A stretch of DNA of 64,000 nt from an archaeon (GTDB taxonomy: Archaea; Iainarchaeota; Iainarchaeia; Iainarchaeales; Iainarchaeaceae): positions 4,017-68,016 of the forward strand of contig JBBSVV010000003.1 of assembly GCA_038046625.1 (NCBI GenBank), read 5' to 3'. This document shows, one piece after another, positions 4,953 to 50,900 of this stretch. Made by a program: the position numbers and the translations under genes. The notes under the pieces are model-generated. The model searched no databases. It was not told where the DNA came from and worked only from the letters and a program-made list of their open reading frames with translations. The first letter of the stretch is position 1; every line of letters starts with the position of its first letter.

Positions 4953-6329
4953 TTACAATGTAACTGCCTTGACTTTTCCGTTTTCCTCTATTTTTCCCTT
5001 TCTTACTCCTACAACGTATTTTGCGCCGGCTTTTTCGGCCGCGTCGAAGAGCCTCTTGGTTATTACTCCGTCAAAGATTATTGAGTGGGCGTTCTTTATT
5101 TTCGCCATTTCCTCGACAAGGTTTTTTACCTCGACTTCCTTGACTTGTTTGTTCTTGTCGTCGAGAATTCTTGCCTTCATTGTTCCCTTGAGCTCGTCAA
5201 GTATGGGCCTGTAAACCGACTCTTCGTTCTGTGAGAGCGCTGGCCTTGCGGGGAATTCCTGTATAGGTTCCCTGGGCGCAATTGTTTCGCGCGGCACGAA
5301 TTCCCTTCTTTCGCGCCTGTCAGGCCTCATGCCGTTGTCGCGGTTGCCCCACCTGCTTGTTGGCCGTGGGTCCCTGTCTCCGTGATCGCGCATCCCTCCC
5401 CCGAAGCTTCTTTGGCCGAAGCTTCTTTCCCTGAAGCCGCGTTCGCGGAACGGCCTTTCCTGGAATGTCCTTTCGCGGAATTCCCCTCCTCCGGGAAATT
5501 TCCTTTCCGAGAGCTCTTCCTCCGCGGGAACCCTTTTTTTGAGGCTCTGGAGAATTTCTTTTCTCGTGAGTTCCTCGACTTCTTTTCCATCGGGCGCTTT
5601 TGCAATGTATGCTATGCGCGCGAGCTGTGCGAGTTTCCTCGCGTTCAGGATCCCTCCTCGGTCGCCGTCAACGAATGCGGTTATGCTTTTCTTTTTTCCG
5701 AGTTCGCTTATTGTGCTTGAGATGTTGGAGCCGTTCATTCCTATTACGTTCTTTATCTGGTTCCTCAGCATGTTCAAAACATCTGCGCGGCCTTCAACAA
5801 CAATTATTTCTTCGCTTATTTCTATGTCGGGGCCCGCGGGCAGTTTGTCCGGGCCGTACTCGGTTATTTCGGCTGCGCGGACGTTTTCGCGTATCTCGTC
5901 CCTCAGGGTTTGTGTTTCGGGGCTTGATTTGTCCATCATTTTTTTGAGCAGTTCTTTTGCGCGGTCCTTTATTTCCTGCCTTTTCGAGGTTCTCGTATCA
6001 TCAATGTCATCTATCTCGAACTTTGCCTGGCAGGGCCCAACCTTGTCCACGCTTTCAATGCTTGCCGCGAGCAGGCTCGTTTCCGCCATGTCCATTGAGC
6101 TCGGCACCAAAACCTCGCCCTTTGTTCTTCCCATTGCGGTTGTGTGGTTTATTTCTATGCGCCCGATTTTTCCGTTCTTCTGGAGCTCCTTCAAATCCAT
6201 TTCGTCTCCCAAGAGGCCTTCGCTTTGCCCGAAAATCGCGCCAATAATATCCGGCTTGTCAACTATGCCGTCTATTTCGAATTTCATTTTTATCATGTAT
6301 TTGACCGTGTTTATGTAGGTCTTCGCCAT
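4953..6329 (-). CDS. dnaG: Archaeal DnaG-like primase (Toprim domain) with an Arg/Glu/Phe-rich repeat insertion near the C-terminus
   Basis: N-terminus MAKTYINTVKYMIKMKFEIDGIVDKPDIIGAIFGQSEGLLG matches the archaeal DnaG N-terminal signature. Toprim block EIIVVEGRADVLNML...ITAFVDGDRGG. The ORF track begins 57 codons further upstream (6500); the start was chosen at MAKTYIN. Confidence 0.75.
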   Translation of the reverse strand: MAKTYINTVKYMIKMKFEIDGIVDKPDIIGAIFGQSEGLLGDEMDLKELQKNGKIGRIEINHTTAMGRTKGEVLVPSSMDMAETSLLAASIESVDKVGPCQAKFEIDDIDDTRTSKRQEIKDRAKELLKKMMDKSSPETQTLRDEIRENVRAAEITEYGPDKLPAGPDIEISEEIIVVEGRADVLNMLRNQIKNVIGMNGSNISSTISELGKKKSITAFVDGDRGGILNARKLAQLARIAYIAKAPDGKEVEELTRKEILQSLKKRVPAEEELSERKFPGGGEFRERTFQERPFRERGFRERSFGQRSFGGGMRDHGDRDPRPTSRWGNRDNGMRPDRRERREFVPRETIAPREPIQEFPARPALSQNEESVYRPILDELKGTMKARILDDKNKQVKEVEVKNLVEEMAKIKNAHSIIFDGVITKRLFDAAEKAGAKYVVGVRKGKIEENGKVKAVTL

Positions 6330-6378
6330 TTTCCAATCAACTCCTTTTCCATGGCTATTTTGTTTTTTTTCGCGAGAA

Positions 6379-6693
6379 TTAGTTTTTCGGAAGCTTTTCT
6401 CTTTTGAGGAACTTGAGAACAAGGTTTTTTTCCGCTCCTTTGAGGAGCAGTTTTTTCCTTCGGCTTTTTTCGCCGCTTTTAATTTCAACTCCGCATCCAA
6501 GCCTTTTTTTGAGCTCTTTCACGAGCCCTTTGTTGGCTTGGCCTTTGAGTGCCTTTTCCTTAACCTTGATTCTCAATGCGTTCGTCCAGGGGTTAAAGCC
6601 CAGAATTGCGAACTGTTTTGAATTCGGAATCACTTCCAATTCAATTTCAACATCATTGTTTTCTGCAACTGATTTAAGGTTCGTCAAAACCAA
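6379..6693 (-). CDS. Small basic protein, possible DUF167/YggU-like
   Basis: 104 aa, K-rich, weak resemblance to the UPF0235 family. Low specificity. Confidence 0.35.
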   Translation of the reverse strand: MVLTNLKSVAENNDVEIELEVIPNSKQFAILGFNPWTNALRIKVKEKALKGQANKGLVKELKKRLGCGVEIKSGEKSRRKKLLLKGAEKNLVLKFLKREKLPKN

Positions 6694-6871
6694 TTAAACC
6701 TCAAATTCCCCAAAAGGACTCGGGCTTCCAAAGCCGCCAATCCTCATAGCAAAACAATAAACTATATACATAAAGCTCGGTTATGGGTATATTAATGTTA
6801 GGGTTCCGTTTGCCCCTTGGTGCTTTGGCACGGATTATATATTCCTCCCAGCCCCTTTTTATTGTACACAC

Positions 6872-7276
6872 ATGGCTCACTACAACAAGGGCGCTTCGGC
6901 GGAGCGCGAGCTCATAAAGCTTCTCTGGAATCTTGGTTTCGTGGCTGCGCGGGTCGCGGGTTCCGGAAAGAACGCCTTGCCCATGCCTGATTTAATCGCC
7001 TTGGGGAAAGGAAAGAGCTTCATTTTTGAGTGCAAGGCATGGCGCGGGAACTATTTGAACATTTCCGCGGAGCAGATGGCCGAGCTCCAAAAATGGGGCG
7101 AGGTTTCCGGTGCACAGGCTTTCATCGGCTGGAAGTACCCGAACAAGGGCTGGTTTTTCGTGAAGCCGGAGCACTTCAGGAAGAGCAAGCATTACAACAT
7201 TTCGATTGCGACAACAATGAAGGTCGGCATTCCATTGGAAGTTGTTGTGGGCGAGCAGCGGCAATTAAAGGTTTAA
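6872..7276 (+). CDS. hjc: Holliday junction resolvase Hjc
   Basis: 134 aa. GASAERELIKLLWNLGFVAARVAGSG...PDLIAL...FIFECKA matches the Hjc catalytic E/D/E-x-K arrangement and size. Confidence 0.75.
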   Translation: MAHYNKGASAERELIKLLWNLGFVAARVAGSGKNALPMPDLIALGKGKSFIFECKAWRGNYLNISAEQMAELQKWGEVSGAQAFIGWKYPNKGWFFVKPEHFRKSKHYNISIATTMKVGIPLEVVVGEQRQLKV

Positions 7277-12917: not shown

Positions 12918-14009
12918 ATGGGCATAACTTCCGTGATTGACGGCGCGGTTCAGGCAATCCATGATACTGAGAAGCGCAAGGCCCTTGTTTCTGAAAAGCT
13001 CCTGCCCCTCAAAAAAGATTCGGTTTCTTTCGAGTCGCATGAAATACCAGAGAAGCGCCTCTCGTTTCCCGTTTCCAGGTGGGTTCCGAATGGTTTGGTC
13101 GGGGGCGTTGACTCTGGCTTTGTTGCGAAGAGGCTTGCTTCGGTTGACCTGGTTTTGATCCGCGCAATGGGCGTGGTTTTCAGTTACGAGAACGGAATTG
13201 TGAAAAAAACCGATTATTTTCCAGGTTATTTCAGGTTTCCAGAGCCTCACTTGAGCAATAATGCTTTGGAGGAGGATGAGGCCGAACAGTCAAAGTCACT
13301 GATGCGGCTTTATGAGGAAGTGAATGCCACAAAAACAATTATCAAGGAGCACAAGCCGAAGTACTGCTTCATCGACGGCTCGATTGTGCCGCAGTACCAG
13401 GACAAGCCGCGCAAGGAATCAAAGTTAACAAAAAATTATGTTGACATAATCAAGGAGTTCGAGTCACTGTATGGGCTCGCGGAGGAAAATAACTGCACTT
13501 TGATTGCGACCGTCGAGGATTCGCGTGGCTCGAGGTTTCGCGGAATTATCCAGGATGTTGTTCTCGCGAAAGAGCCTCTTGTTGAAAAGCGCCAATTGGA
13601 CGGATTGTTTGATTCCTCTTTGCTGGATTATTTTTTGTCAGTCGGCGAACGCACTTGTGCTTTCACTTACACGCAGAACATAAAGCAGCATCCCGTGCTT
13701 CACGATTTTTCCGAGTCCTGGAGCCACAGGATTTATTGCCTTTACATCAAGCCCACCCCGTTCGACAAGCCTTTGCGCGTTGAATTCATTTCGAAGGGCG
13801 ATTTGAAGAAGGAGGCCGATGAGGTTGCTTCGGTTGCGTTTGCCCTGAGTTCTTTGCATCGCGAGTATGCGTATCCTTCTGTCCTGATTGAGGCGGACTT
13901 CCACGCGAAACTGAAGCAGGATGAGATTGAGATTGTTTACAACAAGATAATGGACAAGCTCGGTGCTTCCGTGAAATTGAAGATGAGGCGCGACAACAGG
14001 CCGTTCTGA
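12918..14009 (+). CDS. nurA: NurA 5'-3' nuclease
   Basis: GGVDSG and CFIDGSIV (NurA-domain D-G-S active-site motif), ~363 aa, located in a herA/rad50 neighbourhood. Confidence 0.7.
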   Translation: MGITSVIDGAVQAIHDTEKRKALVSEKLLPLKKDSVSFESHEIPEKRLSFPVSRWVPNGLVGGVDSGFVAKRLASVDLVLIRAMGVVFSYENGIVKKTDYFPGYFRFPEPHLSNNALEEDEAEQSKSLMRLYEEVNATKTIIKEHKPKYCFIDGSIVPQYQDKPRKESKLTKNYVDIIKEFESLYGLAEENNCTLIATVEDSRGSRFRGIIQDVVLAKEPLVEKRQLDGLFDSSLLDYFLSVGERTCAFTYTQNIKQHPVLHDFSESWSHRIYCLYIKPTPFDKPLRVEFISKGDLKKEADEVASVAFALSSLHREYAYPSVLIEADFHAKLKQDEIEIVYNKIMDKLGASVKLKMRRDNRPF

Positions 14010-14057
14010 GGTAAGAAATATATAGTAAAAAGTAAGAAATGTGTATGGTGATGTAAG

Positions 14058-14312
14058 ATGGCAAAGACAGTGCTTTCATCGAAGGGGCAGCTTATTCTTC
14101 CTGCGGAATTCAGGGAAAGACGCAAAGTGCTGCCTGGAACTGAGTTTTCGGTTCAGGAACTGCCGGGCGGCGGGTACATGTTTATTCCCATTCCAAAGGA
14201 CCCTATAAAGGCCCTCAGGGGAATTGCAAAACACTTGGATATTTCTTCAAGCGATATAAAAAAGATGAGGCGGGAAGATGATAGGCGAAGAGAGAAAAAG
14301 CTTGGTTTTTGA
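14058..14312 (+). CDS. vapB: AbrB/SpoVT-family antitoxin (VapB-like)
   Basis: MAKTVLSSKGQLILPAEFRERRKVLPGTEF is a swapped-hairpin AbrB/MazE-type motif. Overlaps the downstream PIN gene. Confidence 0.65.
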   Translation: MAKTVLSSKGQLILPAEFRERRKVLPGTEFSVQELPGGGYMFIPIPKDPIKALRGIAKHLDISSSDIKKMRREDDRRREKKLGF

Positions 14313-14676
14313 CACATCGGCCATGATAAAGTATGCCAAGGATGAAGAGGGTAGCGCCAAGGTAGGCGAGTTATTCAAAAAGCATGAGTGCATTGCCAGT
14401 TCCATAAGCGCGTTTGAGATAGTCCATAAGATGGGGAGGGAAGACATAAGGGCTGCACTCTTATCAATCGCCTTTTTCGAGGAATTCTTCATTTTCATCT
14501 CTCCTGATTATGGGTTGGCAAAGAGGGCGGCTATTCTAAAATTGAAATATCCTCAGGCAAACCTTTCAATGGCGGACGCGATAATAATTCAAACCGCAGC
14601 AGAAAGAAATGCCCGCATTGTCACGTGCGACAAAGAATGGAGAGTTGTAAAAGAGGCAGAAATAGAAATAATCTGA
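14278..14676 (+). CDS. vapC: PIN-domain toxin VapC
   Basis: LVFDTSAMI (first Asp), ADAIIIQTA and TCD acidic residues in PIN order; 132 aa. Confidence 0.7.
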   Translation: MIGEERKSLVFDTSAMIKYAKDEEGSAKVGELFKKHECIASSISAFEIVHKMGREDIRAALLSIAFFEEFFIFISPDYGLAKRAAILKLKYPQANLSMADAIIIQTAAERNARIVTCDKEWRVVKEAEIEII

Positions 14677-14699
14677 CTTGGTTTTTTTGGTGTGTTGAA

Positions 14700-14813
14700 A
14701 TGATTTGCCCGAAGTGCGGTTCAAGCGAGATGGAGAAGATGCTCACAAAGGGAATCCAGTTCCGCTGCAGGGTCTGCGGTTACAGGGGCCCGATGAGTGG
14801 TGATTTTTCGTGA
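14700..14813 (+). CDS. Small zinc-ribbon protein
   Basis: MICPKCGS...CRVCGY gives two CxxC pairs. Start placed at the internal Met of ORF 14625-14813. Confidence 0.3.
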   Translation: MICPKCGSSEMEKMLTKGIQFRCRVCGYRGPMSGDFS

Positions 14814-15004
14814 AGCGGGATTCAAAGAAGATTGTGAAGTTCTGTTCCCGCTGCGGCTCAACGGATTTGAAGCCGCTTTATTTCATGGAAGCAATCGACA
14901 ATAGAATGCAGTGCATGGGCTGCAATGTGATTGAATTCCCTGTTGAGGGCACTGAAAAGTTTCGGAAAGAATTTTTGGAGGGAAGTAAAAATGCCGGCAA
15001 ATAA
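14810..15004 (+). CDS. Small zinc-ribbon protein
   Basis: CSRCGS...CMGCN CxxC pairs; 64 aa. Confidence 0.3.
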   Translation: MKRDSKKIVKFCSRCGSTDLKPLYFMEAIDNRMQCMGCNVIEFPVEGTEKFRKEFLEGSKNAGK

Positions 15005-18000
15005 CGAGGAAATCGGCACGGTAATAAGCAGCATGGATGGCCCTTCGCCGAGCGCATTGGATGTTGTTATTTATTCCGGAAAATTGCACCGCGGCCAGTT
15101 CGTTGAATTGGATTACAGTGAAGGAACCCTGGTTGCGCTTGTAACCGATGTAGTGAAAACAAACAGGTATTTTGAGCGCGTTGAATCCGTGAAGGAGTTC
15201 GAGCGTTCCGGCACGAAATTGTTCGAGCAGTTTCCTACTGCGGAGTGGGAATACCTTGTTGCAAAAACAAGGCCGCTTGGAGTTTATGATAAGGGCTTGA
15301 TTAAGCGCTCGACTTTTCCGCCTTCACCGGGCACAAAGGTTCGGGTTGCGGAGAAGGAAACGCTTGAAAAGTTTTTGGGCCTTGACCTTGAAAAGGGTTT
15401 GATGCTTGGGGAAATCGAGCACCACGGGGTTTTTGTGAAATTAAATCTCTCCCGCCTTTTCCAGAAGCATCTTGCGATTCTCGCAATGAGCGGCGCCGGG
15501 AAAAGCTATTTGGTTTCTGTTTTGCTCGAGGAATTGTTGGAGAGGAAGAAGGAGGATGGGCGCCTCGCTGTGATTGTGATGGACGCGCACGGCGAATACC
15601 GTTCTTTTGCCGAGCCTGTTCCCGACAAGAAGCACAGCGATTTTTCCTCAAAATCCAGGTTTGTGCGCGCCTCGGAAATCCAGATTGGTGTCCCAAAGCT
15701 TTCAATCGGTTTGCTTGCCGCGCTGATTCCTGGCCTTTCGGCGCCGCAGAAGCGTGACCTCGCAAGGGTTATTGAAAGATTGCGCAAGGAAATGAAAGAT
15801 GGCCTCGGGCCCTTTGACTTCAATGCGGTAAAGGCGGAGATTATGAAGGATTCTGAAATGAAGGAAGTAACAAAGATGTCTCTAATTGGGTGGATAATGT
15901 CCCTCGAGCAGCTTCACTTGTTTGGCAAGACTGATGCGCCCGGAATCAGCGATTTGGTGAAGCCGGGGCAGCTTACAATAATTGATTTGAGCGACGTGAT
16001 TGACCTTAAGAAGAAGCAGATTATTGTCGCGTATTATGCGCGCAAACTTTTTGATGAGAGGCGCGCAAAGCGTGTTCCTCCTTTCAGTATTGTTGTCGAG
16101 GAAGCGCATCAGTTCGCACCAGAAAGGGTTTCAAAAGAAGGTTCCATCAGCAAGCACGTGATTGAAACCATTGCCAGAGAAGGAAGGAAGTTCGGTGCGA
16201 GCATCTGTCTGATTTCGCAGAGGCCGGTTAACCTTTCAACTACGGCTTTGAGCCAGTGTGTTTCACCAGAAACTCAAGTGATTCTTTCAGACGGGCAGGA
16301 GTGTGCCATATCAGATTTCGAAAATAATTATTCCAAGACAAAATTAACAAGCTGCGATATTGAGAAAGGCAAATTGGAAGGGGCATATATTTCGCATTAT
16401 CAAAAAAATAATCCAAAGCAACAGGGGAAAAAATGCTTTGAAATAACTACTGTCGCAGGAAGACAATTAAAATGTACAGGCGACCACCCAATTTGGACAA
16501 AGGGAAAAGGATGGGTTAATGCGGCGGATTTAACTTTCAGCGATAAGGTGGCTATATTGCCGACAATTAAATCATATCCAGGGACTCCTGTTCTTGAAAT
16601 ATCTTCTGACTGCCTATCAGGTCTACTGCCTTCAACAATTAACAAGCAAAGATTGTTTGAAGAATTACAAGAAAAAGGTTTAATAGATAAAGAAATAGAA
16701 CCTCAAAAGATATTGGCTTTGGCGAGGCTCATCGGCCATATTTTTGGCGACGGTTCCCTGCATCCGCCTTACAAAAACAAACAGGGGCAGCATTCGCTGC
16801 GAATTACATTTTCAGGTTCGGAAGAAGATTTGCAGGAAATAAAAAACGATTTGGCATTTCTAGGCTTTAAGTCTGATCAAAAAATAAGCAGGCAAGTCAA
16901 AACTTCATATTCAAACTTTGTAAATTTTGGAAAAAGAAAAATTCACGGAACCTCAATATGTTTCAAAACTGGCATTGTAGGGCTTTGGGCTATTTTAAGA
17001 TTTTTGGGAGCTCCATTAGGGGATAAATCAAACACTAAAGTTTGTATGCCTAAGTGGATTTTAGATTCTCATATTTCCGTCAAAAGGGAATTCCTCTCAT
17101 CTTTGTGCGGAAGCGAATGTTCTGCGATAAGGTGGGACGGAAAATATCCTGATAGGCCTATTCTCCCATTTTCCAAGGTTGAATCGTTAAGCGGGAGCGG
17201 GCATTTGTATGCAAATAGTCTTATTTCTATGTTTCAAGATTTTGGAGTCAAGTCAAACTTATATGTAAGAGATTATGTGTGGAGAAAAGATGGCGCAAAA
17301 AGTCTGCAATTTATTATTTCGATAAATAGGTCGCGAAATAATTTGATTAATTTCTTGTCAAATGTTAACTATCGTTATGCTGTTAAAAAAAGAAGTGCGG
17401 GTTTGCATGTCTTAGAATATTTAAAATGGCTCAACATAAAACTTAATCAGAAAACAGGGCTGTTCAGCGAAGTAAATAAATCTGTCGGCGAAGTTGGTTC
17501 CAAGCAAACTTCATTGATTTATAAAATGCATAAGAAAGTTGTTGAAAACTGGGCAAGTATGGGTGTTGAAAAGTTACGACTCGCCCCGGCAGATAAAATA
17601 CCCGCTTATTCGTATTGGATAAAAGAAAAAACAGAGTCTCTTTCGGCTGGTTTAATTTGGGACGATGTAGAATATATTGAGCCCATTGTGCTTTCTGACG
17701 TAAGAGATATAACTGTTCCAAATCATCATTGTTTTTTTGCTAACGGATTTTTGACCCATAACTGCAACACCCACATTATTCTCCGTGTTACTAATCCTTA
17801 TGATTTGGACCACATCAAGCAGACCAGCGAGGGCATTGACCAAAGGACTGTTGACATGATTACTTCTCTCAGAACAGGCGAAGCCATAATTGTGGGCGAA
17901 GCCGTGAATTATCCCGTGTTTTTCAAGGTGCGCAAAAAAACCGTGCAGGATTCGCGGCACGAAAAGTCCCTCGAGGCTTCCGCTCTGGAGTTTGAGGAGA

Positions 18001-18041
18001 ACCGCGAGGAAAGGACAAAAGAACTTGATGATTTGCTGTGA
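14991..18041 (+). CDS. herA: HerA helicase (FtsK-HerA ATPase) interrupted by a 502-aa LAGLIDADG intein (nt 16257-17762)
   Basis: Walker A (AILAMSGAGKSYLV) and Walker B (IVVEEAHQFAP). The intein starts at Cys (SQ|CVSPETQVILSDG) and ends ...FLTHN|CNTHII, with LAGLIDADG blocks LIGHIFGDGSL / LSSLCGSECS. Start chosen at MPANNEEIG. Confidence 0.8.
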   Translation: MPANNEEIGTVISSMDGPSPSALDVVIYSGKLHRGQFVELDYSEGTLVALVTDVVKTNRYFERVESVKEFERSGTKLFEQFPTAEWEYLVAKTRPLGVYDKGLIKRSTFPPSPGTKVRVAEKETLEKFLGLDLEKGLMLGEIEHHGVFVKLNLSRLFQKHLAILAMSGAGKSYLVSVLLEELLERKKEDGRLAVIVMDAHGEYRSFAEPVPDKKHSDFSSKSRFVRASEIQIGVPKLSIGLLAALIPGLSAPQKRDLARVIERLRKEMKDGLGPFDFNAVKAEIMKDSEMKEVTKMSLIGWIMSLEQLHLFGKTDAPGISDLVKPGQLTIIDLSDVIDLKKKQIIVAYYARKLFDERRAKRVPPFSIVVEEAHQFAPERVSKEGSISKHVIETIAREGRKFGASICLISQRPVNLSTTALSQCVSPETQVILSDGQECAISDFENNYSKTKLTSCDIEKGKLEGAYISHYQKNNPKQQGKKCFEITTVAGRQLKCTGDHPIWTKGKGWVNAADLTFSDKVAILPTIKSYPGTPVLEISSDCLSGLLPSTINKQRLFEELQEKGLIDKEIEPQKILALARLIGHIFGDGSLHPPYKNKQGQHSLRITFSGSEEDLQEIKNDLAFLGFKSDQKISRQVKTSYSNFVNFGKRKIHGTSICFKTGIVGLWAILRFLGAPLGDKSNTKVCMPKWILDSHISVKREFLSSLCGSECSAIRWDGKYPDRPILPFSKVESLSGSGHLYANSLISMFQDFGVKSNLYVRDYVWRKDGAKSLQFIISINRSRNNLINFLSNVNYRYAVKKRSAGLHVLEYLKWLNIKLNQKTGLFSEVNKSVGEVGSKQTSLIYKMHKKVVENWASMGVEKLRLAPADKIPAYSYWIKEKTESLSAGLIWDDVEYIEPIVLSDVRDITVPNHHCFFANGFLTHNCNTHIILRVTNPYDLDHIKQTSEGIDQRTVDMITSLRTGEAIIVGEAVNYPVFFKVRKKTVQDSRHEKSLEASALEFEENREERTKELDDLL

Positions 18042-18191
18042 TCATCGTTCTGAAGTTTTCTGCCCGGACTTTTTTGCTGCATAAAATTTATTCATGAATT
18101 GAGTTTGTGTGCAACCTGTTGTCCTTCAGCTCCGCACCGGCAATGTGCCCCCCTTCAAAATCGCTTTTAAAGCCGGAATCCAAACTCCTGT

Positions 18192-19691
18192 ATGCTCCCA
18201 ATTGGAAAGACTTTCCTGTCCCGCATCACTTACCTTTCGGAAAAGAGGCAGGTTGTTGCGGAGTTCTCGAATTCCTCGGAAAAAATTTCCAAGCGTTACT
18301 CTTTCTTTCCCCGTATGCATTTCCCGATGGAGGGGATTTCACAGGGTTCGCTGAAGGAGGTTTTGTCGCTTTATGATTCCAGGCGCTTCAAGGTTGATTT
18401 TGAGGAAAACCGTGCCGTGATTTTTGCCGCCACGTTTTCCGACCTGAAAAAAATAAATAATTTGCTTTCGGATTCCCTGGGCTTTTCCTCGAACCTCATT
18501 GAGCCTGAGAGGCAGTTTCTCATTGACAGGGGCTGGAGCTACTTTGATTCTTTCACTTTTTCTGCGGATGAGCCGCAGAGGGTTTCATCGCTTGATTTTC
18601 CTGATGTGGCGCTCGGCTTTCTCTCCGATTCCCTGCCCATGACGATGCGTGACCTCATTTCATCCAACAGGCAGCTGGCCAGGGAAATCGCGGGCCGCGT
18701 TTCCATGTCGAGGGTACTGCGTATCCCCCTATTGTCTTCGGAAATGCACAGGGCCGCTCCGGAGGTTTTTCTGGAGAATGTTTTTTTCGCTTCAAAAATG
18801 CCTGTCCCCATTTCTCCGGAAAAAAAGCAAAGCATTCCGTTGAGGGTTCCGCATAAGACGGAAATAGATTTTTCCGCGGTTACGCCGCTGCTCTTGTGCA
18901 GGCCGTTCTCGAATGCAGGCCCGGAGACAGTGAACTGTGCCTGCTGCAGGCCGGCTTCGCTGAATGATTTCAATGTCCTTGCGGATACAATTGTGAAGGC
19001 GCGTTTTTTGCGCGAGGGCGCGTATTTCAATTCCGCGTCTTCTTTTTGGGCGGAGCAGTTCCACGTTTCAGGCCGGGACAAGGATGCCAGGTCAAGGAGG
19101 CGCGCCGAGTATAATTACCAGTTTTTTCCCGTGGGGCCTTTTTCGCGGAATGAAACGGCGGAAATTCTTTTGGCGGATGCCGTTGAGCTGCAGGGGCAGG
19201 GCATTGCCGAAATTCTCGGCGTAACGGGGTGGAGCTGGTTTTGTTCACAGAAGGAAAGCGCATTTTCAAGGGAAACGAATGCCCTGCGCGAAACCATTTC
19301 TTCCCTTGAATCTTCCCTGGATAAGGAGCATACTTCCGTTGTTGCATCAAATGGCCTGTTTTTTTCGCAGGCGCTCGAGGCGCGGCTGGATTATTTTTAT
19401 AGGAAGATTTTCCTCGAAACCGCTTCCTCGATTTTGTGTTCGGTTTCCGGCGTGCTTTCCGACAGGTCTTCGGGCTTTTTCTCCCCAAAAATAGCTGTTC
19501 TGCTGGAAGTTGCTTCTTTCCGCATCCTCAAAGGTTTTGAGGAAATATGCTCCTCGAACGGCATTGCAAGGGTTTCCACGGGACCTTCAAAAGCCTTTGT
19601 GGACTCTTCCTCGGTTACGCGCATTTTGAAGGATTTTTCCGAGGCATACAAGTTGAATAGGCCGTTTGTAAGGCTCAAAACCCGTTTTTAA
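18192..19691 (+). CDS. Hypothetical Ser/Phe-rich 499-aa protein sitting between herA and rad50
   Basis: Long uninterrupted ORF with no strong competitor. No Mre11 phosphoesterase motifs and no other recognisable domain. Confidence 0.45.
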   Translation: MLPIGKTFLSRITYLSEKRQVVAEFSNSSEKISKRYSFFPRMHFPMEGISQGSLKEVLSLYDSRRFKVDFEENRAVIFAATFSDLKKINNLLSDSLGFSSNLIEPERQFLIDRGWSYFDSFTFSADEPQRVSSLDFPDVALGFLSDSLPMTMRDLISSNRQLAREIAGRVSMSRVLRIPLLSSEMHRAAPEVFLENVFFASKMPVPISPEKKQSIPLRVPHKTEIDFSAVTPLLLCRPFSNAGPETVNCACCRPASLNDFNVLADTIVKARFLREGAYFNSASSFWAEQFHVSGRDKDARSRRRAEYNYQFFPVGPFSRNETAEILLADAVELQGQGIAEILGVTGWSWFCSQKESAFSRETNALRETISSLESSLDKEHTSVVASNGLFFSQALEARLDYFYRKIFLETASSILCSVSGVLSDRSSGFFSPKIAVLLEVASFRILKGFEEICSSNGIARVSTGPSKAFVDSSSVTRILKDFSEAYKLNRPFVRLKTRF

Positions 19692-19704
19692 CAACCCTTT
19701 CGCG

Positions 19705-19752
19705 CCGGAAACCGCCGGCGGTAGGGCGACTATCTTCGCTTTGCTCGATAGT
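19705..19752 (+). repeat. Structured repeat element, copy B
   Basis: CCGGAAACCGCCGGCGGTAGGGCGACTATCTTCGCTTTGCTCGATAGT, just upstream of rpoK. A TTTTTAACAA TATA-like stretch lies ~25 nt upstream. Confidence 0.7.
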
Positions 19753-19827
19753 AAGGTATTACGCTCGGAACTACCTTTTTTAATTCTTTGCGTAGGAGTA
19801 TTGGTAGATTAATAACTCGTTTTTTGA

Positions 19828-20043
19828 GTGTTTTTGATGGCTAAATTAACCCGTTTTGAAGTGACGCGCCTGATTAGTGCGAGGGCTTTGCAGCTTTCCT
19901 TGGGGGCGCCGGCACTCTCTAAATCAGAAAAAGAAGGGACCCCGATTGATATGGCGCGCGATGAGTTCGCGAAGAAGGTAATTCCTCTCGCGGTTTTGAG
20001 GGAGTTTCCCGACGGGCACGTTGAAAGGGTTGAGGTGAACTGA
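19828..20043 (+). CDS. rpoK: DNA-directed RNA polymerase subunit K (Rpb6/omega homolog)
   Basis: LTRFEVTRLISARALQLSLGAP matches the RpoK/Rpb6 core; ~70 aa. Confidence 0.75.
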   Translation: MFLMAKLTRFEVTRLISARALQLSLGAPALSKSEKEGTPIDMARDEFAKKVIPLAVLREFPDGHVERVEVN

Positions 20044-20238
20044 ATGGGCAAGGCCGTTCCGAAGAACATCAAGAGCAAGGCCAACACCTTGATGAGCACT
20101 TACCCTGACAAGGTTTCAAAGGATTTTGAGGCCAACAAGGTTTTCATTGATTCTTTCAAGATGCCTTTGAGCAAGGAGGAGCGCAATTTGGTTGCGGGCT
20201 TCATTGCGAGGACGAAAGCCAAGGCGTCAAGCGCCTGA
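20044..20238 (+). CDS. rps17e: 30S ribosomal protein S17e
   Basis: MGKAVPKNIKSKANTLMSTYPDKVSKDFEANK...ERNLVAGFIAR aligns to the S17e pattern (MG.VR...KR.A...YY..LT.DF..NK...RN.IAGY). Confidence 0.65.
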   Translation: MGKAVPKNIKSKANTLMSTYPDKVSKDFEANKVFIDSFKMPLSKEERNLVAGFIARTKAKASSA

Positions 20239-22272
20239 GATTTTTGTTGTCCCGTCATTTTCTTTTTCCCTTTCAAGCACGTAAAGCTTTCCTGATGCCG
20301 CATTCTCCATTTCCTTGTCATGCGTGATAATGAATATCTGCTCAATGAGTTCGGGCAGATGGTTGCGCATCATTTCGCTTAACTCGTGCACGGCATTCGA
20401 ATCCAAATTATGAGTGGGCTCATCCAGCATTATCCATCCAAGGTTCTGCGTGAGGACCAGAGAAACCGCTATCCGGATTGTTATGGCCGCGGCAGTCCTT
20501 TCACCTCCGGAAAGTATTCCCTCGACGCGTATCCACTCGCCGTTCCTTTGCCTCGCCATTATTTCGTAGCTGCCTTCATCCACAATTATTTTTGCGCTTG
20601 TTAAGTCCTTGTAAGGATAAACTTTTTCCCAGATTTCGTCCATTGCGTCGTTTATCGTTTCTATCATTGCGTTCCTCAGTTCGGCCTGTGTCGCTTTTAG
20701 CGCCTGCGTGAAGAGCGCGAGTTTTTCAACCGCGGTTTCGTTTGCCTTTATTGTTTTTTCGAGTTCTTTTGCCTGTTCAATGCCGCGCTTCATCATTTCC
20801 GCATTGTCGCGCATCTGCTTCAGAAGTTCTGAAGCAGCGCTTATTTCCGAGCTTGCTTTTGCCTTTTTTTCCCTGAGCAAAGCCATTTCTTCCCTTTGCC
20901 TGGCCATTTCCTTTTCGTCAAACCCTGTTTTGCGGATCATTTCCAGTGTTTGTTTGAGTTCCTTTTCGAGCGCGCTTTTCTGCTTTTCCTTTGCCTCCGC
21001 CTCTTTCGCGGCCTCGAAGATTTTTTTTGTTTCCTCGAGCTCCTGCTCGGTTTTCTTTTTGGCTTTTTTGTGCGCGTCTTTTTCCTTTTCGCGTTCCTCG
21101 AGCTCCTTTTCGTTCCTTTCGGTCTCTTCCTGAATTTCCCTTATTTTTGCGGTTATTTCGCGCTTTTGCCCCTCTAGCTCCTTTTCCAGCTTTTTCTTGT
21201 CATGCTCTTCCAGCGGCCTTTTGCACACGGGGCACTCGCTTCCCAGTTTTCCAGTTTCCTTTGCTGCCCTTGCGTTGGATTCGAGCAGGTTTTTTTGGAC
21301 CGCGAGCCTCTGCCTTGCCTTGGAAATTTTTTCCATTGTTTCTTTCGCGTTTTTTTCCGCCTTCAGGATTTTTTCCTCAATTTCCGAGTTTTCCTTCTGC
21401 TTTTCGCGCAACTCCTTCTCGGTTGCCTTTTTTTCCCCGATTTGTTTTCCAATCCTTTGGATGTCCTCTTTCAGTGCTTCCGTTCTGGATTTCGTTTTTA
21501 TTTCGAGTTCTTTAAGGAGGCGGTGTTCTCTTTCCTTTTTTTCCTGCTCCCCGAATTTTTCATCCTTTTGCTTCAGCTGCTTTTCGGTTTCCCCGAGCGC
21601 AACTTTTTTTTCCATGGCTTCTTTTTCCTTTTCCCGGATTTTTGTCTCGCGTTCCGCGAGCTCCTTTTCCGTGTCGCGCTTTTTGTGTTCCATGAGGAGG
21701 CTTTTCCTGTCTTCCGCCATTTTTTTTATCCGGTTTGCCAAAGTAACCGCGTTGGTGCGAACTTTTTCATAGCGGTCCAGGCCGAGCAGTTCATCGAATT
21801 TTTCCTTTCTTTGCGCGGGGCTCAGCTTCAGGAAGAAGTCTATTTGGTTTTGTTCGGAGTATATTGCGCGGCTGAACAAATCGTAGTTCACTTCGAGTAT
21901 TTCCTCTATTTTTTTGGTCACTTCGCTTGTTTTTGGCCCGGCAATTGTTTTGCCGTTTTCCTTTAGGCTTGCCTCGTTGATGCCGTTCCTTTTCAGCGTC
22001 CTTTCCACAAAGTATTCTTTTTTGTTGTAGTCGAACTCCATTTTCACTACGCTTTTTTCCGCCCTGAACGGCTTTGCCATTATTGTTTCGTCGAGGCTGA
22101 CCTTGCGCGCGTTAAGGCTCGGGAAGGTGCCGTAAAGTGCGAAGCATATGGCGTCTGTTACCGAGCTTTTTCCCGCGCCCATTTTTCCCACTATGACGTT
22201 CGTTCCCTTCACGAATTCCAAGTGGTTTTGGTGGTGGGTTTTCCAGTTCTCGAGGTAAATGCTTTTTATCAT
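20227..22272 (-). CDS. rad50: Rad50 ATPase (short, 681 aa) with a CxxC zinc hook
   Basis: N-terminal Walker A GKMGAGKSS. Zinc hook ECPVCKRPL in the middle of the K/E-rich coiled coil. C-terminal signature LSGGERTAAAI plus Walker B/D-loop MLDEPTHNLD. Confidence 0.8.
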   Translation of the reverse strand: MIKSIYLENWKTHHQNHLEFVKGTNVIVGKMGAGKSSVTDAICFALYGTFPSLNARKVSLDETIMAKPFRAEKSVVKMEFDYNKKEYFVERTLKRNGINEASLKENGKTIAGPKTSEVTKKIEEILEVNYDLFSRAIYSEQNQIDFFLKLSPAQRKEKFDELLGLDRYEKVRTNAVTLANRIKKMAEDRKSLLMEHKKRDTEKELAERETKIREKEKEAMEKKVALGETEKQLKQKDEKFGEQEKKEREHRLLKELEIKTKSRTEALKEDIQRIGKQIGEKKATEKELREKQKENSEIEEKILKAEKNAKETMEKISKARQRLAVQKNLLESNARAAKETGKLGSECPVCKRPLEEHDKKKLEKELEGQKREITAKIREIQEETERNEKELEEREKEKDAHKKAKKKTEQELEETKKIFEAAKEAEAKEKQKSALEKELKQTLEMIRKTGFDEKEMARQREEMALLREKKAKASSEISAASELLKQMRDNAEMMKRGIEQAKELEKTIKANETAVEKLALFTQALKATQAELRNAMIETINDAMDEIWEKVYPYKDLTSAKIIVDEGSYEIMARQRNGEWIRVEGILSGGERTAAAITIRIAVSLVLTQNLGWIMLDEPTHNLDSNAVHELSEMMRNHLPELIEQIFIITHDKEMENAASGKLYVLEREKENDGTTKISGA

Positions 22273-22471: not shown

Positions 22472-22735
22472 TCAGAGCAGCGTCATACCCTCTATTTCCG
22501 CGTCCTCTACTTCTTTTAGTTTTTTCACTTCTTCAAGAACGCGGTCAATTGCCTTCTCGTCTTTCGAGTTAACCAGTATGCCGGCTTTTATTACTTCGAC
22601 GCCGAAGCCTATTGGTTCGCGTTTCACGTCCTTTACTTCGCCGCTTTTTATGCCCTTTACTGCCTTTACCGTTGCGTCAAGTTTTTCCAGGTCTTTGGCG
22701 TTTATTTTGAGAATTAGAAGCGTTTTGTCCGGCAT
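22472..22735 (-). CDS. ef1b: Elongation factor 1-beta (aEF-1beta)
   Basis: 87 aa; ...REPIGFGVEVIKAGILV... matches the archaeal EF-1beta guanine-nucleotide exchange domain. Confidence 0.7.
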   Translation of the reverse strand: MPDKTLLILKINAKDLEKLDATVKAVKGIKSGEVKDVKREPIGFGVEVIKAGILVNSKDEKAIDRVLEEVKKLKEVEDAEIEGMTLL

Positions 22736-46813: not shown

Positions 46814-47968
46814 TCATCCCACCTTCGGTTGGGTTATTTTTAAGTAGAACACGAGGAACCCAAGCACAAGCGGCATTGCAACCAAATAAATTGCCGCTAT
46901 TGCTATCGGGGACAATGCAACGCTTCCCACGGAAATCGGTGCATTGGTTATGGAGCCTATTATTCCGATGAAAACCGGCACCACTATTGCGGCGAAAATG
47001 TATATTACTCCGAAGAAGTTCATTTTTTCCGAGAACTCGCGGACCGCAATGCGCATGTCGAAGCTCACGTCCTCGGCAATTGTGTTCATTATGTCCGAGA
47101 GGTTTCCCCCGGTTTTCATTGCGCGTATTATGTGCAGGAGCGCGTTGCGCAGCGCCTTTGACTGTGTCCTTAAAGCGAAGTGCCTTAGCGCGTCTTTCGT
47201 GTCCGTTCCTTCCTCGACCTCGTTTATTGTGCGCGCGAATTCTTCGCTCAGCACGCCGTAATCTGAGGTCGCTATTGTCTGCAGTGTTTTGTAGAGGCCT
47301 ATTCCGGACTTTAATTCGGTCGCCATGTGCCTCAATGCGAAGGGCAGCTCCACGCTCATGGCGTCGCCCCTTCTTTGTGCGTTGCTTTTCGGTACGAGCA
47401 TCAGCGCTACAAGCGCGAACATTCCCACTGCGCCGGAAATGAGGATTGAGTAAAGCAGGTTCACCTTGTACACGAAGCTCAGTGCGGCAATGATTGCAAA
47501 TGAAAATATTCCCGCAAGCGTTGCGGCCGCAAGGGAAAGCGCGAGCCATTGCTGGAGCGAGTACTTCATGTTTGCGGAGTAAAGGTAATACCGCACATCA
47601 TTCGCGAGCGGCAATTTTTTTATGAGGCGTGAAACCGGGTCAAGCGGCAGCCTGAGCATCAGGTAAAGTTTTCCAAGGCTCTTTATCGCAGGGCTCTGGA
47701 ATTCCTGCAAATCTTCAACGGTCTGGACGTTTATTTTTGCCTGTTCGCCCTCGGCAATTATTCCCCTCAGCTCCCCAAGCTTTCCCCCGACTTCCTCGAA
47801 TTCAATGCCCTGTTCACGGTACTTTTTTTTCATGCGGTCGACTATTTTTTCTACCTTGTCCATGTCCACGGTTTCCTGCGCGTCCTTTCCCGCAGTCGTC
47901 TGCTTTTTTTCTTCCTTTTTTTCCTCGATTTTTTTTCTCAGGTCGCTCAAAGTGCTCATGGTGTTCAC
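46814..47968 (-). CDS. FlaJ/TadC/PilC-like membrane platform protein, copy 2
   Basis: Same architecture as 45732-46688; 384 aa. Confidence 0.6.
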   Translation of the reverse strand: MNTMSTLSDLRKKIEEKKEEKKQTTAGKDAQETVDMDKVEKIVDRMKKKYREQGIEFEEVGGKLGELRGIIAEGEQAKINVQTVEDLQEFQSPAIKSLGKLYLMLRLPLDPVSRLIKKLPLANDVRYYLYSANMKYSLQQWLALSLAAATLAGIFSFAIIAALSFVYKVNLLYSILISGAVGMFALVALMLVPKSNAQRRGDAMSVELPFALRHMATELKSGIGLYKTLQTIATSDYGVLSEEFARTINEVEEGTDTKDALRHFALRTQSKALRNALLHIIRAMKTGGNLSDIMNTIAEDVSFDMRIAVREFSEKMNFFGVIYIFAAIVVPVFIGIIGSITNAPISVGSVALSPIAIAAIYLVAMPLVLGFLVFYLKITQPKVG

Positions 47969-50900
47969 TTTTTTTTCATTGAGTACTGCTTTACCGCTTC
48001 GGAGATTTCTTTCATGCTTCTCCTGTTTTCCTTCACGAGCTTTTCGAGGTATGCCGCCCTGTCCTTGACCTCGTCATCAAAGTCCTTTTTGGACATTCCC
48101 GCGAGTTCCTGGAGTTTTTGGGCGTAATTTATCTGGGCTTTTGTCCTTTTTAGGGAGTCTGTTACCGGGTCGCGCAGGTATACGGCTTCGGTTTTCGGCT
48201 TGCCTTCAAGGGCGCCGGTCACTTGGGCAATTTCGGTTATTCTCCTTATTGTCCCCATTTTCCTGTCGTGCAGCCTGTGCTGTACAACTATTATGTCGAG
48301 CCCGGAAAGCATTACTTGCGGCACGTTCATCGGCGGGTTTGTCACCCTCACGATTGTTTCCTGTGCCGAGTTTGCGTGCACTGTTCCGAGTGAATTTCCC
48401 ACGATTATTCCCTGTGCCACGAAATTATGGGGGTTCCTGCCGGTTTGCCTTTCTTCGCTTACCGTCAGGTCATATACAAATCCGTTGTATGGGTATGAGT
48501 GTATGGCAATTACCTTATCCCAGAAAATGTCGGATTCCGCGAGCAGCTTAAGCTTTGAGGATTCAATTCCCGCAGATTCAAATGCCTTGGCGAGTGCCCC
48601 GACTGCACGCCTGCTCGGCGTCCTTTCCCTTCTTTTGTAAAAACTTATTGCTCCTTGTGTTAATCCTGCCATTCTCGCAATTTCAGAATTGCTGTACCCC
48701 TTTTCTTTTTTTGCCGTTTTGAGCAGTTTTATTATGGTGCCGTTGCATTCTATGGTGTCGGTATTCGTGTTGCTTTCTTTTCCCCTGCCGAGCAGTTCCT
48801 CTATTTTCCTTATTTTTTCGGGGAATTTTACCGGGTAGGTTTTGTAGAATTTTTCCACTTGGTCTATTCCATAAATATAGAGCCTGTACCATCTGCTGTT
48901 GTGTGCGCGTGACTCGTATTTTCTGGAGGTTATCCCTTCCGTCAATAATGCATAGCGGAAAAAATCTATGTAGTGCTCGTTTGCGCATGAAATGACGATT
49001 GCATTGTTGTTTGCATCAACATGCCCTTCTGCGTCAAAAAAGCCCGCGACAAACCCGCGCAGGGAGTTCGTGTAGTGTGAATTGGACATTTTTGCTTTCT
49101 GCCTGCTTCCCGCGGGGATGTCAAGCATTTCCATAATCTTTGCGGTTTTCTTGAACCCGCTTATGTGCGCTTCATAGCATTGCTTTTGCGGGCGCGGGTT
49201 CACTATTTTCACGTGTGTCCCATCGAGGTTTTCTTTCATGTAATTTATGAATTTCGGGATTATGGTTTCCTCTTCTGTGTAGAGGTTTATTGAGCCTTCA
49301 TTGCACAGGTATTGCTTGCCGTTTTTTTTCCTTTGCCTTTTGTAATAGGTTATGTTTCCGTCACCGTGCAGCAGGCCACTCCAGTATTCGCTCTCGGTTT
49401 CTTTTGCGTTTTCTTCCCTGAGCAGCTTTCTCGGGGTTGCAATGTTTTGCCCTTCCTTGAGAGTGTCCGCCCTTGCCTGTTGAATGTTGTCCGCAAGAGT
49501 ATAGAATGGGTGGTTTCCCGTGCAGGTTAGTTCGCTGCCGGAAGCAAGCTTTATGTGGTAAACGTTGCCTGTGAAAGGCCTGCGCCTTGCCTGCACGATT
49601 TTTTGCCTGTTCACTTTCCCTTTGCCGTCCACAGAGTTGATGTGCTCATCGCCCACAGTGCACACTTCCCACTCTCCTTCTTTCCGGCTGCCGTTTTTCT
49701 GCAGTTGCTCTTCCGTGAATTGGCCGATTTCGCGTATTCCCGAAGTCAGCGCTATTTTTGCTTCGCCCGTAAGGCAACCGTCATGCCCCGTGTTGAATGC
49801 CGTGAACAATGAGAACGCCTCATCATGCCTGATTTCGCCGACAATTATCCTGTCAGGGCGCATTCTCAGGGAATTTTTCGTGAGTATGTCAAGCGTTACC
49901 TCTCCGGTTCCTTCAAGCCCAGGCGGCCTTGCTTCCATCCTTATCCAGTGCTTCAAGGGAAGGTTCAGTTCGGCCGTGTCCTCAATGGAAATTATCCTTT
50001 CTGTTTCCGGTATGAATGTTGCGAGCACGTTCAGCGTTGTGGTTTTTCCGGAGCCGGTTCCGCCTGAAATCAGTATGTTTGCGGGTTTCGTGCCCAAGCC
50101 ATCGGTGCATGCCCACAGGAATGCGGCGGTTTCCGCTTCAATGGTTTTGTTTTTTATGAGGTCTATTATTGTGTAAGGGTCTTCGCGGAACTTTCTTATT
50201 GTCAATGTGGAGCCCTGCACCGAAGCGGGGGGAATTGTTGCGTTGACCCTGCTTCCATCAGGGAGTCTCGCATCAAGGAGCGGGCTGCTGATGTCCACCC
50301 TTCTTCCTATTTGCCTTGCAATCCTGTTCACGAGATCCTGTATTTCATTGTCGTTGTAGAACTCGATGTTCGTTATCATCATTCCGTATTTCCTGTGGAA
50401 AATGTAAACCGGCCTGTTCGGCGCGATGACCATTATTTCCTCGAGCTTGTCATCGTGAATCAGGTCGTCTATTATTCCGTACCCTATCATTTCCCGTATT
50501 ACCGTGTTCGCATAAAAATCAAACCGCGTTTTTGGTATGTTGAGTTCCGGGGAGTCGCGGAGAATCTCAAGCACTTTCTGGTAGTAAACGTTCTTTCTCT
50601 GCTCCGGGTCGCGGATCTTGTAAGGCGTAATGCTGATTACCCTTGTCGCGGCCTCCTTGATGGTGTTGATTATTGTTTTTTCCGCCCCCACAGGCCTTGG
50701 CACGGGTATCCAGTAGTAAAGCAGGGGCTGTCCCGGGAGCTCGTAAATTTTGGCGTTTCCATAGGAATCAATGAGCTTTTTTTCGGATGTTTCCAGTTCC
50801 CTTTCCGCGGTGGATTTTTGTTCCTCGGGAACGCTTTCCGGGTTTTGCGGCGCGTTGATATTTTCCTGTGGCGGGAGCGTGCTCTTTATTTCCGCTATTT

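Follow-up and report, generated by a model that had tools for sequence, protein, structure and literature searches.

A protein family with an apparently inactivated family B DNA polymerase fold in the nurA-herA-rad50 region of Iainarchaeota

What occupies the place of mre11 when the other genes of the archaeal DNA end-processing cluster lie together without it? The question is raised by a 64,000-nucleotide stretch of an Iainarchaeota genome (contig JBBSVV010000003.1 of assembly GCA_038046625.1, positions 4,017 to 68,016 of the forward strand), which we call the window: nurA, herA and rad50 are clustered there, no mre11 is recognisable, and an open reading frame (ORF) of 499 aa lies on the plus strand between herA and rad50 (18192..19691). 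A preliminary description of this locus, made from the sequence, proposed that either mre11 is elsewhere in the genome or the 499-aa protein is a non-orthologous partner of Rad50 and HerA. Our analysis indicates that the gene is not a missed or cryptic mre11. Its product is apparently a miniaturised, catalytically dead paralogue of the family B DNA polymerases (PolB), and the gene is called polB-like below. The Ser/Phe-rich composition reported before is correct (13.8% Ser, 8.6% Phe), and a motif scan again found none of the Mre11 phosphoesterase motifs (D-x-H, GD-x2-D, GNH[DE]) in the ORF.

The ORF has no match in Pfam, NCBIfam or PADLOC. A word-indexed search returned about 30 homologues of ~500 aa, all of them unannotated and coming from metagenome-assembled genomes (MAGs) labelled 'archaeon' or Diapherotrites. 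The AlphaFold2 (AF2) model built from the alignment of homologues is confident (pLDDT 89.4, pTM 0.88), and the Foldseek search of the PDB with this model gave family B polymerases for all of the top 50 matches, at probability 1.0 and ~10% identity. The best match was PolB from P. calidifontis (E=1.7e-8), and the others included E. coli Pol II, the KOD, Tgo and Pab PolB enzymes, human Pol epsilon and the ASFV polymerase. In the viral library BFVD, every named match within the top 50 was likewise a DNA polymerase. Thus the AlphaFold-based structural search, which the preliminary description had suggested as a check, points to family B DNA polymerases only. The same description had set a match to an unrelated housekeeping family against its own proposal; since the structural match is to a DNA-metabolism family, this objection does not arise.

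The links to PolB that can be drawn from sequence alone are weak. The family profile matched only Pol II and archaeal PolB among the PDB sequences, weakly (Pol II at E=0.25) and in the stretch from motif B to motif C, while alignment by hhalign to Pfu PolB gave E=0.007 and a probability of 5% in the region of motif A. Neither Pfam DNA_pol_B nor DNA_pol_B_exo1 was matched by any of 29 family members, even at E<=10. The later columns of the Pfu alignment, which place WFC opposite RWYC after motif B, are in conflict with the predicted finger helices and were therefore rejected in favour of the Pol II alignment. We consider it very probable that ORF 18192..19691 encodes a member of an inactivated PolB-fold family.

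The domain anatomy was derived from the predicted secondary structure together with the Pol II and Pfu alignments, and the conservation counts given below refer to 106 full-length cluster representatives. The PolB N-terminal domain (aa 1-118, 18192..18545) ends in the near-invariant motif EPERQFL at aa 104-110 (F109 in 106/106, L110 in 105, R107 in 100 and Q108 in 99), which we take to correspond to the 'FAKRYLID' motif of archaeal PolB. It is followed by a remnant of the exonuclease domain (aa 119-170, 18546..18701), predicted to form two short strands and one helix. The core carrying Exo I and Exo II is deleted, so that ~50 aa remain of a ~200-aa domain, and these ~50 aa between the N-terminal domain and the palm consist of variable columns with no DxE, no YxxxD and no conserved acid. 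The first part of the palm (aa 171-248, 18702..18935) was placed by hhalign to Pfu, with aa 172 opposite Pfu residue 330, and it contains a degenerate motif A (..EIDFS.., Asp226); the segment IDFS..N.G.ET.NC.CC was aligned with the motif A region of the Pfu sequence. Next comes an insertion stapled by cysteines (aa 249-351, 18936..19244), in which C249-x-C251-C252 and C351 enclose ~98 aa. The fingers (aa 357-423, 19260..19460) consist of two long helices, 357-387 and 399-423, that correspond to residues 487-552 of E. coli Pol II in the profile alignment. In the second part of the palm (aa 424-499, 19461..19688) the AF2 model has the motif C hairpin at aa ~460-470 (E460-462/E467-470). The chain stops ~30 aa past this hairpin, with no thumb and no KxY motif.

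The catalytic motifs have decayed throughout the family. The Asp226 of motif A is kept in 80/106 sequences and is replaced by N in 15, S in 3, E in 2 and G in 1 of the others; the LYPS part of the motif is missing. The helix that should carry motif B (KxxxNSxYG) shows no conserved K, N or YG in its columns (aa 399-423). At motif C, positions 462-466 are variable (S/N/G/K and others) and no conserved acid was found in the 106 sequences, the DTD of Pol II standing opposite 's-n-s' in the profile alignment. The gene is under purifying selection: compared with the 97%-identical strain, the single-cell genome of Ca. Iainarchaeum andersonii, it has 25 synonymous and 15 non-synonymous codon differences, a crude dN/dS below 1. 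Because the motifs are decayed, the cysteines of the insertion are invariant and selection is purifying, we read the protein as a polymerase fold in which catalysis is lost while a structural metal site persists. A split active PolB and a remnant of a mobile element were also considered; both were rejected because the motifs are degenerate in every lineage, selection is purifying and the chromosomal synteny is fixed.

No other part of the protein is as well conserved as the insertion, whose mean column identity is 57% against 45% overall. All four cysteines, C249, C251, C252 and C351, are invariant (106/106), and G315 (106/106), R300 (105/106), D329 (104/106), H291 (100/106) and E306 (88/106) are conserved nearly as well or equally. 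We infer that these four cysteines coordinate a metal with a structural role (Zn or Fe-S). The insertion modelled alone is confident (pLDDT 91), and Foldseek of this model against the PDB returned no significant match, whether to an enzyme fold or otherwise, with Pol epsilon not among the 50 best. GINS subunits made up 33 of these 50, at E values of 0.16 to 1 and thus below significance; Sso GINS was found at E=0.16 and probability 0.93, and the GINS51 B-domain of T. kodakarensis at a TMt of ~0.7. Among Pfam models the commonest sub-threshold match was PSF2_N, the B-domain of Psf2 (4/29 sequences, best E=0.009). Finally, hhalign set GPF..ILLADA..L..G..I (aa ~313-344) against residues 32-63 of human PSF2, with its motif GPF..VPLWLA..L; at E=0.006 and a probability of 6% this alignment is not significant. 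In contrast to a GINS B-domain, the small beta-rich domain found N-terminally in Psf2/Psf3 and C-terminally in Psf1/Sld5/Gins51, the insertion has two helices and extra strands and sits in a polymerase palm, not in a GINS subunit. The resemblance consists of three independent signals, all weak, and is a lead rather than a finding. The profile of the insertion matched the PDB sequences only in a spurious hit to a glutaminase, and one family member had a sub-threshold match to Pfam DUF1744, a domain of the inactive C-terminal half of Pol epsilon; taken singly it is at chance level (E=0.074), though in keeping with the overall picture.

How does this protein relate to the polymerases that are known? 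Its best structural matches are the archaeal PolB3-type and E. coli Pol II-type enzymes (P. calidifontis 5mdn, KOD/Pfu/Tgo, Pol II 3k57), with which it shares the N-terminal domain, the palm, the fingers and the geometry of the motif A region. One cysteine stands ~24 residues past motif A and another immediately ahead of the first finger helix, like the C428/C442 pair of Pfu and KOD. The differences are large: ~10% identity, no match to Pfam DNA_pol_B, deletion of the Exo I/II core and the thumb, degenerate motifs A, B and C, a 98-aa insertion closed by four cysteines, and a length of 499 aa against ~775. The polB-like protein thus falls outside the active family B polymerases: it shares their fold, but the Exo motifs, intact polymerase motifs A to C, a thumb and a Pfam match are all missing.

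Two non-catalytic PolB modules have been described before: one is archaeal PolB2, and the other makes up the C-terminal half of Pol epsilon (PMC4104785, PMC7544198). The archaeal PolB2 or Dpo2 proteins are 'inactivated' family B polymerases (Rogozin 2008; Makarova 2014, PMC4104785; group B2 in PMC7544198) that are tied to an inactivated RadA and to arCOG07300, and although they were judged inactive, weak activities have been reported (PMC4104785). The protein studied here resembles them as a conserved PolB homologue in which the polymerase and exonuclease motifs are disrupted and which presumably plays a repair or regulation role in a complex. Compared by description only, PolB2 differs in having the full domain set and in being detectable as PolB from its sequence, whereas the polB-like gene is linked to nurA-herA, rpoK and rps17e and its family seems almost confined to Iainarchaeota. 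No RadA-like gene appeared among the Pfam matches of the neighbouring ORFs in the window or among the genes called in the three related loci L001-L003, the screen of 70 related loci having had no RadA query. As for arCOG07300, which has no Pfam model, it was not seen, as judged by the lack of a conserved ~90-aa ORF and without a dedicated search. We regard the polB-like family as a probably non-catalytic PolB derivative that is similar to PolB2 in concept and different from it in architecture and in gene context.

The second comparison concerns the CysX motif of Pol epsilon. In the polB-like protein the cysteines stand 3+1 around the 98-aa insertion, which spans about +23 to +125 relative to the Asp of motif A and ends shortly ahead of finger helix 357; the offsets in yeast Pol2 are +25 to +123, with D640 as its motif A. 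In yeast Pol epsilon CysX comprises C665/C668/C677 and C763, three cysteines before and one after the P-domain insertion of the palm, by the hinge of the fingers (PMC6582351). The two proteins share this 3+1 arrangement around a segment inserted between motif A and the finger domain (here C249/C251/C252 and C351). However, no P-domain fold is detectable in the insertion, so that the likeness is positional only; Pol epsilon ranks 42 in the Foldseek search with the whole protein, and the polB-like protein is much smaller and, to judge by its motifs, inactive. The C-terminal half of Pol epsilon is itself a PolB module that has lost its activity and serves only structurally (PMC7544198). According to the Pol epsilon literature, CysX occurs in no other known polymerase (PMC6582351, PMC7544198), and a site with its topology in an archaeal protein is of interest for this reason. 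No description of the polB-like family was found in the survey of PolB diversity (PMC7544198) or in the literature on Iainarchaeota and PolB.

The family was followed through the databases. An exhaustive hidden Markov model (HMM) search of 1.84 billion representatives gave 185 clusters at E<=1e-3, and among the best 150 of them none had the length of a canonical polymerase. The scan of one genome per prokaryotic species yielded 70 loci, including one in a complete 1.05-Mb genome; where a phylum-level label is given, it is mostly Ca. Iainarchaeum or Diapherotrites, and many loci bear just the label 'archaeon'. Three loci bear other labels, Falkowbacteria (a bacterium, L024), Micrarchaeota (L033) and Thaumarchaeota (L061). 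They have the same array of herA, polB-like, rpoK, rps17e and rad50 as Iainarchaeota and are therefore probably mis-binned or mislabelled. In the data searched, the family seems to be almost confined to the Iainarchaeota (DPANN).

In the window, every gene named in the preliminary description was found where it had been placed, and the separation of nurA from herA, both on the plus strand, by vapB/vapC and two Zn-ribbon ORFs was borne out by ORF positions and domain matches. On the plus strand, nurA (12918..14009, 363 aa, Pfam NurA E=7e-13), encoding the 5'-3' nuclease partner of HerA, is followed by a gene for a vapB-like antitoxin of AbrB/MazE fold (14058..14312, 84 aa, with sub-threshold matches to Pfam MazE_antitoxin at 18 bits and NCBIfam AbrB at 22.8 bits), the gene for the PIN-domain toxin vapC (14278..14676, 132 aa, Pfam PIN E=2e-15) and two C2C2 Zn-ribbon ORFs of 62 and 64 aa (14625..14813 and 14810..15004), both with weak Zn-ribbon matches. 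Then comes herA at 14991..18041, in an ORF that opens at 14931 and has its probable start Met at 14991 (Pfam DUF87 E=6e-31, NCBIfam HerA models 126-143 bits). Between the polB-like gene and rad50 stand two plus-strand genes that had been overlooked, rpoK for RNA polymerase subunit Rpb6/K (19828..20043, 71 aa, Pfam RNA_pol_Rpb6 E=4.5e-8) and rps17e for ribosomal protein S17e (20044..20238, 64 aa, Pfam Ribosomal_S17e E=3.7e-7). The stop end of rps17e overlaps the 3' end of rad50, which is on the minus strand (20227..22272), and directly upstream of rad50 on its own strand is the gene for EF-1beta (22472..22735, Pfam EF1_GNE E=1.9e-9).

Related loci keep this order even where identity falls to 24%: nurA, then vapBC (in a few loci), Zn-ribbon, herA, at most one variable gene, polB-like, rpoK and rps17e, and after them a convergent rad50, followed by EF-1beta and, several kb further, by the CCA enzyme. 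Among the loci with at least 5 kb of upstream sequence, nurA is upstream on the same strand in 32/44. In 51 of the 63 evaluable Iainarchaeota loci, herA is located at most 3 kb upstream of the polB-like gene and in the same orientation, and in 19 of those 51 the two genes are directly adjacent or overlap; in locus L043 nurA, herA, polB-like, rpoK and rps17e are spaced by 4 to 22 bp or overlap. Downstream, rad50 is within 3.5 kb in 48/57 loci and convergent in 46 of these. The position of rpoK after the polB-like gene is kept in nearly all related loci and that of rps17e likewise, and EF-1beta is a conserved neighbour of rad50. At least 14 related loci have homologues of the first Zn-ribbon ORF between nurA and herA, and homologues of the second stand immediately upstream of herA in related loci. 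Both ORFs are genuine conserved genes of the nurA-herA interval, with homologues there in many Iainarchaeota (e.g. L007, L011, L012, L019, L025 and L060). In contrast, vapBC is present between nurA and herA in only 5/70 related loci and thus looks like an accessory, sporadic and recent insertion into the operon. A conserved nurA-herA-polB-like array beside a partnerless rad50 is unusual.

The next step is the absence of mre11 itself. The assignment of the rad50 gene (681 aa, with a short coiled coil) is sound as judged from its motifs and domain matches: the best NCBIfam Rad50 model reaches 187 bits (E=3e-55), and Walker A, the Q-loop, a CPVC zinc hook at aa 347 (codons at nt 21223-21234), SGGE and Walker B were all found. 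The protein is ~200 residues below the typical length of an archaeal Rad50; lengths of 669-690 aa are seen in many Iainarchaeota and of ~780-800 aa in another subgroup of the phylum. The preliminary description was right that rad50 is on the opposite strand and has no partner, for it is convergent with the 499-aa ORF and no nuclease gene adjoins it.

It was also right that the cluster is without a recognisable mre11, and this holds across the window, its flanks of ~16 kb and the related loci, which together cover ~80 kb of this genome and +/-10 kb in 70 related genomes. The Pfam search of almost all ORFs of at least 180 aa detected no metallophosphoesterase in the 64-kb window, and no Mre11-like ORF was found there by motif scans or by phmmer with a P. 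furiosus Mre11 and an Aenigmatarchaeota Mre11 (from locus L077) as queries; with the latter the sole match was the query itself, the positive control. No metallophosphoesterase was called in the ~16 kb that flank the window in a different assembly of this organism, and no Mre11-like ORF was seen within +/-10 kb of the 70 related loci, nor any Mre11 or metallophosphoesterase ORF within +/-10 kb of rad50 in ~50 Iainarchaeota genomes. Of the four genes herA, mre11, rad50 and nurA, three are thus clustered, and the fourth is absent from everything covered. The preliminary description had ascribed a single operon of these four genes to most archaea, which is over-general: in the relevant passage of the literature the statement is limited to hyperthermophiles (PMC2288612).

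The closest Rad50 from outside the phylum, at 37% identity, belongs to Aenigmatarchaeota, is 673 aa long and is encoded directly downstream of a 439-aa Metallophos gene, whose homologues with a phylum-level label were all from Aenigmatarchaeota among the best 120 matches listed. Since this nearest outside Rad50 keeps its mre11 neighbour, the loss of the mre11-rad50 adjacency appears, from these gene neighbourhoods, to be specific to Iainarchaeota. The short Rad50 of Aenigmatarchaeota (673 aa; L076, L077) stands in a classical mre11-rad50 operon with herA nearby. Reviews of DPANN and the papers on Undinarchaeota, PolB diversity and the Asgard replisome contained no data on Mre11 or PolB specific to Iainarchaeota.

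With Mre11/SbcD the polB-like protein shares only its position, between herA and rad50, where mre11 stands in the operon of thermophiles. It differs in everything else: its fold is that of PolB and not the calcineurin-like phosphoesterase fold, it has neither the phosphoesterase motifs nor a Metallophos match, and its gene is not in one operon with rad50, which is convergent here as in most related loci. The proposal that the 499-aa protein is a non-orthologous partner of Rad50 and HerA survives in part: the frequent neighbourhood of herA on the same strand and of rad50 downstream supports it in a weak sense, but as an analogue of Mre11 the protein does not qualify.

We propose that the polB-like protein would no longer synthesise DNA and would use the retained template- and junction-binding surfaces of the polymerase fold instead, with the insertion serving as a protein-docking module. 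It could then be a non-enzymatic subunit, binding DNA junctions or acting as an adaptor, of the presumably co-transcribed HerA-NurA resection motor, and possibly bridge HerA-NurA to Rad50 or to the replisome in break repair or fork restart; the nuclease function of Mre11 would not be supplied by it. As a whole, a dead mini PolB working with HerA-NurA as a non-catalytic DNA-binding or adaptor subunit is the best explanation that we can offer, with a probability of roughly 0.55, and the specific role as a HerA-NurA-linked adaptor, taken by itself, is tentative.

Several points weigh against this reading. What links the polB-like protein to HerA, NurA and Rad50 is gene order, and this by itself is no proof of partnership because rpoK, rps17e, EF-1beta and the somewhat more distant gene of the CCA enzyme, all of them unrelated housekeeping genes, share the array; the synteny may stem from infrequent rearrangement of small genomes and have no functional meaning. 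In ~10/70 loci the polB-like gene is in another context, without a strong herA, rpoK or rad50 adjacent to it. Calls of inactivity based on motifs have failed before, the weak activities of PolB2/Dpo2 being an example (PMC4104785). Lastly, the GINS-like signals of the insertion, weak as they are, favour the replisome over break repair.

This last point leads to the strongest of the alternatives, according to which the dead PolB would be a structural subunit of replication, like the inactive C-terminal half of Pol epsilon that is anchored to CMG. The GINS-B-like insertion would dock to MCM, RecJ/Cdc45 or GINS, and the place of the gene after herA would be an inherited order. The prevalence of GINS among the structural matches of the insertion, Sso GINS and the GINS51 B-domain of T. 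kodakarensis included, the sub-threshold PSF2_N matches and the alignment to human PSF2 all speak for it, and so do the housekeeping genes in the array, the ~10 loci without herA linkage and the precedent of Pol epsilon (PMC7544198). However, the GINS signals are all sub-significant (Foldseek E>=0.16, hhalign probability 6%), no MCM, GINS, RecJ or PCNA turned up adjacent in the 70 loci in a screen that used array genes only, and in 19 loci the gene is tightly packed in the nurA-herA operon. Such a replisome scaffold is possible, if on the unlikely side. We consider improbable the more ambitious combination in which the family would be the archaeal counterpart of the non-catalytic modules of Pol epsilon, with a dead palm and, at the CysX/P-domain site, an insertion of GINS-B-like docking fold stapled by a metal cluster, physically coupling HerA-NurA/Rad50 to the replisome in a phylum that is perhaps Mre11-less.

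It could also be that Iainarchaeota have lost mre11 and that the PolB-like protein has displaced it, taking over Rad50 binding and the recognition of DNA ends while NurA gives the nuclease. The absence of an Mre11 ORF in the ~80 kb of this genome and around rad50 in ~50 others is in line with such a displacement, as are the closest outside Rad50, equally short and in a classical mre11-rad50 operon, and the filling of the herA-rad50 slot that mre11 holds in the thermophile operon. Nevertheless, mre11 may lie elsewhere in the genome, the polB-like gene is convergent to rad50 and never co-transcribed with it, its product has a fold and chemistry unrelated to Mre11 and no nuclease motifs, and in ~10 loci it is away from rad50. 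We know of no precedent for a Rad50 without Mre11. Displacement is, on balance, very doubtful. That the protein is still an enzyme, be it an unconventional polymerase, a primase, a nucleotidyl-transferase or the carrier of a new activity in the insertion (R300, E306, D329, H291), is extremely unlikely: D226 is kept in 75% of members, the polar cluster of the insertion is near-invariant and Dpo2 was once called inactive as well (PMC4104785), but motif C lacks a second carboxylate in every lineage, about one fifth of members have N, S or G in place of D226, thumb and motif B are missing for primer-template and dNTP binding, and no enzyme fold is significantly similar to the insertion.

The family bears on several questions. 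Inactivated polymerase modules that act as scaffolds recur in replication, and few are known, none with the present architecture. The family is conserved across a whole DPANN phylum while it is unannotated and entered in databases as 'hypothetical protein', and as a small, tractable protein it would suit the study of a polymerase fold after the loss of catalysis. Its fixed place with nurA-herA, beside a Rad50 without an adjacent Mre11, raises the question of Mre11-free end processing by Rad50, HerA and NurA. For annotation, it means that the gap in this cluster should not be read as a missed mre11.

An anti-phage system was considered as well, as herA and SMC-like ATPases occur in such systems. 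This reading was rejected because PADLOC matched neither NurA nor the polB-like protein and because the array lies on the chromosome throughout the phylum, with housekeeping genes in its midst.

The herA gene has a feature of its own that had been overlooked. Its ORF is as long as 1036 aa because an intein of 502 aa is inserted (16257..17762, plus strand, with matches to Intein_splicing, intein_Nterm and intein_Cterm), leaving an extein of 514 aa. The intein begins with CVSPETQ and ends with LTHN, followed by the +1 Cys, and the 97%-identical locus of Ca. Iainarchaeum andersonii (L004) is without exactly this segment. In the other relatives the herA intein is present or absent, the ORFs ranging from 1.5 to 4.5 kb. 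Further inteins and related elements are found nearby: the type IV secretion/pilus ATPase (T2SSE) at 47965-51204 on the minus strand has an intein bearing a LAGLIDADG domain, a free-standing LAGLIDADG ORF is at 153-1049 on the minus strand, and the CDC48 gene just outside the window (18462-21290 of L074) is intein-bearing too. Other genes of DNA metabolism in the window encode a DnaG-like Toprim protein (within 4953-7276), the Hjc resolvase (6872-7276), Nre (53267-54526), the RFC small subunit (55091-56134) and topoisomerase I (61266-63356).

The minority context of the polB-like gene is best seen in locus L051 (7724-8719, minus strand), and L044, L047, L050 and L055 are similar. Here rpoK and rad50 are not adjacent. 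A protein of the metallo-beta-lactamase fold with DRMBL/RMMBL (Artemis/CPSF-like) is encoded ~1 kb upstream of the polB-like gene, nurA lies ~7 kb upstream on the other strand, and a divergent, intein-containing HerA-like ATPase is encoded ~3 kb downstream.

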